From Escherichia coli (GTDB lineage: Bacteria; Pseudomonadota; Gammaproteobacteria; Enterobacterales; Enterobacteriaceae), in NCBI RefSeq assembly GCF_002854065.1, contig NZ_CP024147.1: DNA of 64,000 bases; one strand, 5' to 3'. Below, one piece after another: positions 29,106 through 29,418 of the stretch (position 1 is the first letter of the stretch; the number at the start of each line of letters is the position of its first letter). The position numbers and the translations under genes are program-made. The notes beneath the pieces were generated by a model that worked only from the letters and a program-made list of their open reading frames with translations, made no database searches and was not told the DNA's origin.

Positions 29106-29169
29106 AATGTCTCCTGGGAGGATTCATAAAGCATTGTTTGTTGGCTACGAGAAGCAAAATAGGACAAAC

Positions 29170-29215
29170 AGGTGACAGTTATATGTAAGGTTTATGACAG
29201 TTTTATGACAGAGAG
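29170..29215 (-). promoter_or_regulatory. Pho boxes (PhoB binding sites) of the pstS promoter
   Basis: Tandem CTGTCATAAAACTGTCATAAA...CTGTCAC motifs on the pstS coding strand about 60-110 bp upstream of the start codon. Confidence 0.8.
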
Positions 29216-29385
29216 ATAAAGTCTTCAGTCTGATTTAAATAAGCGTTTATATTCAGTTAATTACAAACATTAATAACGAAGAGATGACAGAAAAATTTTC
29301 ATTCTGTGACAGAGAAAAAGTAGCCGAAGATGACGGTTTGTCACATGGAGTTGGCAGGATGTTTGATTAAAAACATAACAGGAAG

Positions 29386-29413
29386 AAAAATGCCCCGCTT
29401 ACGCAGGGCATCC
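29386..29413 (-). terminator. glmS transcription terminator hairpin (region of the Tn7 attachment site; no insertion present)
   Basis: Hairpin gatgccctgcgtaagcggggcat followed by a T run on the minus strand, immediately after the glmS stop. Confidence 0.7.
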
Positions 29414-29418
29414 ATTTA

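Follow-up and report, generated by a model that had tools for sequence, protein, structure and literature searches.

The stretch of DNA analysed here, referred to as the window, is 64 kb long and comes from a chromosome of Escherichia coli. Within it, positions 29106-29418 are exactly the intergenic region that separates glmS from pstS, two genes that both lie on the minus strand. Here, glmS (29419..31248) is identified by its open reading frame and by a full-length match to TIGR01135 (897 bits, E = 6.4e-270). Similarly, pstS (28065..29105), which encodes the substrate-binding protein of the phosphate ABC transporter, is identified by its open reading frame and a full-length match to NCBIfam NF008171 (744 bits, E = 1.6e-224). 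On the same strand lies glmU (31410-32780), whose open reading frame gives a full-length match to an NCBIfam equivalog (E = 3.5e-283). An earlier note on this DNA, made from the letters alone, had described a short region of about 310 bp after glmS; the region measures 313 bp, and its G+C content is 36%, compared with 49% for the window as a whole.

Directly after the tandem stop codons of glmS (TAA TAA) comes a hairpin at 29388..29413 on the minus strand. Read on the glmS strand from 29413 to 29388, its sequence is GGATGCCCTGC-GTAA-GCGGGGCATTT. The terminator scan gives it a stem of 11 pairs, six of them G-C, and a loop of 4 nt, after which the strand continues with TTTTTCTTCC, where the same scan places a T-rich tract (29378-29387, minus strand). 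The predicted fold has an energy of -19.1 kcal/mol (z = -3.4), and none of 200 shuffled sequences folds as well. This is a G+C-rich hairpin that is followed by a U tract and stands downstream of a stop codon; it is the intrinsic terminator of glmS. Transcription of glmUS would be expected to end at this hairpin, just past the stop codon of glmS.

About 180 nt downstream of the terminator stand the core Pho boxes of pstS (29172..29211, minus strand), which consist of four 11-bp units that read CTGTCATAAAA / CTGTCATAAAC / CTTACATATAA / CTGTCAC.... A Pho box has been described as an element of 18 bp in which two CTGTCAT direct repeats are separated by an A/T-rich spacer of 4 bp; it replaces the -35 element and lies about 10 bp upstream of the -10 element (PMC4447250, PMC4415409). 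In the window, the consensus CTGTCATAWAWCTGTCAY is matched with no mismatches at 29194-29211, with two at 29172-29189, and with three in an overlapping frame at 29183-29200. Throughout the 64 kb, in which 0.13 matches to this consensus would be expected by chance, matches are confined to 29172-29211. The hexamer TATTTT (29156..29161, minus strand), which is read from the sequence and follows the proximal Pho box by 10 nt, is the probable -10 element of pstS. The sequence GGAG (29111..29114, minus strand), 6 nt before the ATG and identical in K-12, is its likely Shine-Dalgarno sequence. A scan of the minus strand of the interval for sigma-70 promoters did not find a -35/-10 pair; this is what a PhoB-dependent promoter, with a Pho box in the place of the -35 element, should show. 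The features that make up a Pho-box promoter are found together in 29172-29211 and TATTTT.

The pstS promoter of K-12 is, of course, well known to bind phosphorylated PhoB and to be induced by phosphate starvation. The core promoter in the window differs from that of K-12 by a single dinucleotide in a spacer. Given what is established for K-12, PhoB would be expected to bind the core Pho boxes here as well. Phosphorylated PhoB would occupy the tandem boxes that stand in for the -35 element, and pstSCAB-phoU would be activated under phosphate limitation.

A pattern scan adds two CTGTCAY half-sites upstream of the core promoter, at 29306-29312 and 29284-29290 (minus strand), 22 nt apart. With these, the 313 nt hold five half-sites on the pstS strand (29312, 29290, 29211, 29200 and 29178) against 0.04 expected (Poisson P about 1e-9). 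Within each cluster the half-sites are spaced by 11 or 22 nt. This spacing fits the definition of PhoB sites by direct repeats of 11 bp (PMC4447250, PMC4415409). The upstream pair at 29284-29312, which is present in K-12 as well, is described here as a putative site for PhoB. According to the earlier note, the interval holds nothing but the terminator and the Pho-box promoter; both are indeed there, but this passes over these two half-sites and some 170 bp of A+T-rich spacer.

The comparison with the glmS-pstS region of K-12 (b3729-b3728), which the earlier note had named as the way to check its reading, has been run, and the two are colinear. Annotation of the K-12 derivative Stbl4 also puts 313 bp between pstS and glmS. 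Over 421 aligned columns there are no gaps and five substitutions, four in the spacer (29258, 29248 and the dinucleotide 29191-29192) and one, synonymous, in glmS (29431, which is position +35 of the attachment site attTn7). The Pho-box architecture is shared, and both the terminator and the 25-nt spacer that leads from glmS to the Tn7 insertion point are identical. A 751-bp query that spans the interval matches K-12-derived genomes from end to end at 98.3% identity. At 29191-29192, two positions of the 4 bp that separate Pho-box repeat units, the pstS strand reads AA here and TT in K-12; the AA variant also occurs in O145 RM9872, in CUWW06 and in APEC E19019.

This region is also where the transposon Tn7 finds its attachment site. 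The minimal site for TnsD extends from +23 to +58 of attTn7, with +31, +33, +42, +43, +45, +51 and +54 as its critical positions, and this site, not the local sequence, sets the point of insertion (PMC2918618). The position of that point in the window can be read from a genome in which it is used. In APEC E19019 (NZ_CP126937.1), a spacer of the K-12 type is occupied by Tn7. Here, the flank on the pstS side ends ...ATGCCCCGC where Tn7L begins, and the flank on the glmS side begins, after Tn7R, with CCCGCTTACGC. These junctions mean that the duplicated 5 bp correspond to positions 29394-29398 of the window (CCCGC on the plus strand, GCGGG on the glmS strand), an insertion point that is unused here. 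Position 0 of attTn7 is its centre, 29396, and its 5 bp fall in the 3' arm of the terminator, 21-25 nt past the stop codon of glmS.

A second occupied genome, that of 1EC213 (NZ_CP061101.1), has sequence of a different type after glmS, that associated with the lpfO113 fimbrial operon. There, the duplication is GGGCT, and it is found at the same distance, 21-25 nt after the stop codon. The equal distance in 1EC213 and E19019 agrees with an insertion point that is determined by the TnsD site (PMC2918618). Both genomes carry, between their 5-bp duplications, a Tn7 of 13-14 kb that the window lacks, with tnsABCDE and a class 2 integron that holds dfrA1-sat2-aadA1. The right-end terminus of the Tn7 in E19019 (at about 34160-34175 of the record) reads TGTGGACGG rather than the canonical TGTGGGCGG, which may be either a real variant of the terminal repeat or an assembly error.

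When the published numbering is applied to the insertion point, the TnsD-binding site falls at 29419..29454 (minus strand). Its sequence, CCGCGTAACCTGGCAAAATCGGTAACGGTTGAGTAA, comprises the stop codon of glmS and its last 11 codons. Of its 36 bases, 35 are those of K-12. The exception, at 29431 (+35), changes a Val codon from GTT to GTA; this synonymous wobble change lies outside the seven critical positions, so the window holds a TnsD site with its critical positions intact and an insertion point about 25 bp downstream. E19019 has the same base at +35 and is identical to the window over the 3' end of glmS with the TnsD site, the stop codon and the 25-nt spacer, as far as and including the insertion point; on the pstS side, 5 of 189 spacer positions are different. 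The site at 29419-29454 is thus predicted to bind TnsD and to be competent for transposition. A Tn7 that entered the cell would be directed to 29394-29398, in the terminator's 3' arm, and its right end would face glmS.

This bears on the suggestion in the earlier note that the locus might serve as a landing pad for engineering. The suggestion appears sound, given a TnsD site that matches K-12 at all but one base and an occupied genome, E19019, with the same target sequence. Standard mini-Tn7 delivery should work in this strain. Its cargo would land at a defined and neutral position, where it would interrupt the terminator of glmS.

The space between glmS and pstS is free of insertions, whether of Tn7, of a Tn7-like or CRISPR-associated transposon or of an lpf fimbrial island. 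For Tn7, the query was a complete natural element of 13,214 bp (tnsABCDE plus class 2 integron) taken from strain 1EC213, and a right-end probe of Tn7 was validated by matches at 100% in about 110 of 5,426 complete genomes of E. coli. Megablast returned no match to this 13.2-kb element anywhere in the 64 kb, and blastn returned only chance words of 14-19 nt. With 200 nt of each Tn7 end as query, no match was longer than 13 nt in the window or 10 nt within the interval (E at least 9 there). TnsA-E, compared with the window by tblastn, gave a best E value of 0.19. The ends of such elements have terminal inverted repeats of the TGTGGGCG type and several TnsB-binding sites of 22 bp; the sequence TGTGGGCG itself occurs twice in the 64 kb, both times far from the interval.

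Nor does the neighbourhood of glmS contain tnsA, tnsB or tnsC together with a target selector (tnsD/tniQ, tnsE or Cas). The sequence CCCGC is present as a single copy at 29394-29398, so that no 5-bp target-site duplication is found. Because the interval is only 313 bp long and colinear with K-12, it has no room for a Tn7-like or CRISPR-associated transposon. A 10-nt match at 29216-29225 to part of a TnsB-binding site was considered and set aside as chance; when it is extended, only 12 of the 22 positions of such a site agree, and a terminal repeat does not accompany it. The earlier note's claim that no Tn7 or Tn7-like insertion is present thus survives a search with authentic transposon ends, the finding of which in the interval would have told against it. 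The search covers 64 kb of genome, and a Tn7 elsewhere could supply Tns proteins and might bear on target immunity at this site.

These observations make it very probable (we would say about 97%) that the interval is an ordinary, unoccupied glmS-pstS spacer of the kind found in K-12. Such a spacer is a textbook feature of the E. coli chromosome, here in its commonest state. An empty attTn7 is the default, and carries little biological weight by itself.

The frequency of this state, and of others, emerges from the 5,426 complete genomes. A contiguous K-12-type spacer is found in 2,999 of them with a query of 201 bp that has the insertion point at its centre, and in 2,996 with the 751-bp query (about 55%). 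Some 70 other spacers of the K-12 type are interrupted close to the insertion point, and canonical Tn7 is carried by about 2% of complete genomes. Different DNA fills the slot in many of the remainder. An island of the lpfO113 type is found there in 1,969 of the 5,426 and the lpf2 type of O157 in 355, so that about 43% of complete genomes have an lpf operon (lpfO113, or the O157 lpf2 of OI-154) in the place of 29211-29416. Together, the K-12-type, lpfO113 and lpf2 states account for 5,323 of the 5,426.

What the earlier note did not mention, then, is that this slot is a known site of integration or replacement for lpf2 and lpfO113, and that here it is empty of lpf as well. The location of lpf2 and lpfO113 between glmS and pstS has been described (PMC6033998, PMC2608844). 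In O157:H7, homology to the window ends at 29210 and restarts at 29417, and 6.9 kb with lpf2 (O-island 154) stands between. In 1EC213, 5.5 kb with the lpfO113 operon fills the slot where the window is contiguous. The window has no lpfA-D(E) chaperone-usher genes between glmS and pstS. Further, the 206-bp segment 29211..29416, which the comparison with O157:H7 delimits as the K-12-type alternative to lpf, has no lpf remnants and no significant similarity to either lpf island.

The alleles with OI-154 (lpf2) or with lpfO113, the latter of phylogroup B1, share with the window the chromosomal slot, glmS, the core Pho boxes and pstS. Thus, the core Pho boxes are kept in the K-12, O157 and lpfO113 alleles alike. 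The lpf alleles differ in that 5.3-6.9 kb of fimbrial genes replace 29211-29416, in that they have a glmS terminator of their own, and in that they are without the two upstream CTGTCA half-sites (29284-29312). On one side the homology to O157 breaks exactly at the stop codon of glmS, and on the other at the upstream border of the core Pho boxes. Since the 206-bp segment is not similar to the lpf islands, the states are replacements of one another rather than simple insertions.

From this comes one addition to what the earlier note reported: The slot has several states (K-12-type, lpfO113 and lpf2, each with or without Tn7). This means that PCR across glmS-pstS types both the Tn7 status and the lpf status of a strain. 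One might speculate further that the K-12-type segment and the lpf islands are alternative cassettes, swapped by homologous recombination in glmS and pstS between breakpoints that are fixed at the stop codon of glmS and at the upstream border of the core Pho boxes. Because the upstream half-sites are found only in the K-12-type cassette, lineages could then differ in the strength or timing with which pstSCAB-phoU responds to PhoB; we regard this as rather improbable.

The genes around the interval have, it seems, more than one history. Here, pstS (99.6% identity) and pstC (99.5-99.6%) are closest to those of O157:H7. In contrast, glmS is 100% identical to that of O145 RM9872, and glmU is only about 96% identical to either O157 or RM9872. 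The closest genome found, CUWW06, is 100% identical from pstC through glmU and differs elsewhere. This mosaic of identities over 27019-32780 suggests recombination tracts around the locus. O145 RM9872, to which the 751-bp query is 100% identical, was considered as a match for the whole window and rejected; overall identity is 97.7-99.1%, and the first 8.1 kb are arranged differently.

Such a mosaic invites the question of whether the K-12-type spacer is original to this lineage, or whether it came in by homologous recombination in glmS and pstS and replaced an ancestral lpf island. The flanks of the interval resemble O157 and O145, down to genes for EspY-like type III effectors that replace the bgl operon between yieH and phoU, and pstS is 99.6% identical to that of O157:H7; yet O157:H7 and O55:H7 carry lpf2 in this very slot. 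The O157 homology has sharp edges, one at the stop codon of glmS and the other at the upstream border of the Pho boxes, and between them the two states have no sequence in common; this is what a cassette-like replacement would leave and a simple insertion would not. Against this, O145 RM9872 and CUWW06 share the K-12-type spacer, so that the state is not peculiar to this strain, and no remnant of lpf is seen. Gain of lpf in the relatives and its loss here both fit the data. We consider an earlier lpf island at this site possible, but doubtful.

A former occupation of the site by Tn7 or another element, subsequently lost so that the emptiness is secondary, is far less probable still. The precedent exists, of course, since Tn7 is found at this site in about 2% of complete E. 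coli genomes, and the mosaic locus makes replacement of an allele by recombination plausible. But no footprint of a departed transposon is seen: CCCGC is single, and the terminator and spacer have no insertion or deletion relative to K-12. Remnants of Tn7 ends are not found either, although a precise loss leaves no trace; such a loss would not alter what stands at the site today. It is about equally improbable that the interval hides some small element, such as a small RNA, a small open reading frame or a miniature transposable element. The A+T-rich spacer between the terminator and the core Pho boxes would have space for one, the two upstream half-sites being the only feature assigned to it, and a 54-aa open reading frame on the plus strand (29330-29494) runs antisense over the end of glmS. 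An open reading frame that runs antisense into a coding sequence is, however, typical of those that arise by chance. Further, Rfam at a permissive E-value gives no match in the interval, whose only strong inverted repeat is the terminator. The same permissive scan, over 28000-31600, returned a sub-threshold match to a microRNA family inside pstS, which was put down to chance. Nothing observed speaks against an ordinary spacer of the K-12 type, which remains the reading that we prefer.

The wider window has features of its own. A copy of IS1 at 7338-8105, with a perfect terminal repeat at 8083-8105, joins a truncated gene for a carbohydrate porin, next to uhpABCT (65-5676), to a tnaA that is without its first ~46 nt, without tnaC and without its promoter. 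The uhp genes are inverted relative to K-12, and tnaA is not preceded, as it is in O145 RM9872, by the dnaA-mnmE segment. To judge from its layout, this arrangement looks like a rearrangement mediated by IS1. A second copy of IS1 (19178-19945, terminal repeat at 19923-19945) interrupts a gene for an EspY4-like type III effector. This gene belongs to the effector-like block that stands between yieH and phoU, a place taken by the bgl operon in APEC E19019; in O157:H7 and O145 RM9872 the block is found without the second IS1.

In the intergenic region between glmU and atpC, colinearity with O145 RM9872 is broken at 33021-33110, where the window has about 89 nt and RM9872 about 54 nt. This difference in length may be a polymorphism of a repetitive extragenic element. 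Farther along, in the gap between mnmG and mioC, the three 13-mers of the DNA-unwinding element of oriC are found at 43359-43407; a search with a degenerate 13-mer pattern gave no match there, and it was the exact K-12 sequence that matched. Their position places attTn7 about 14 kb from the origin of replication.
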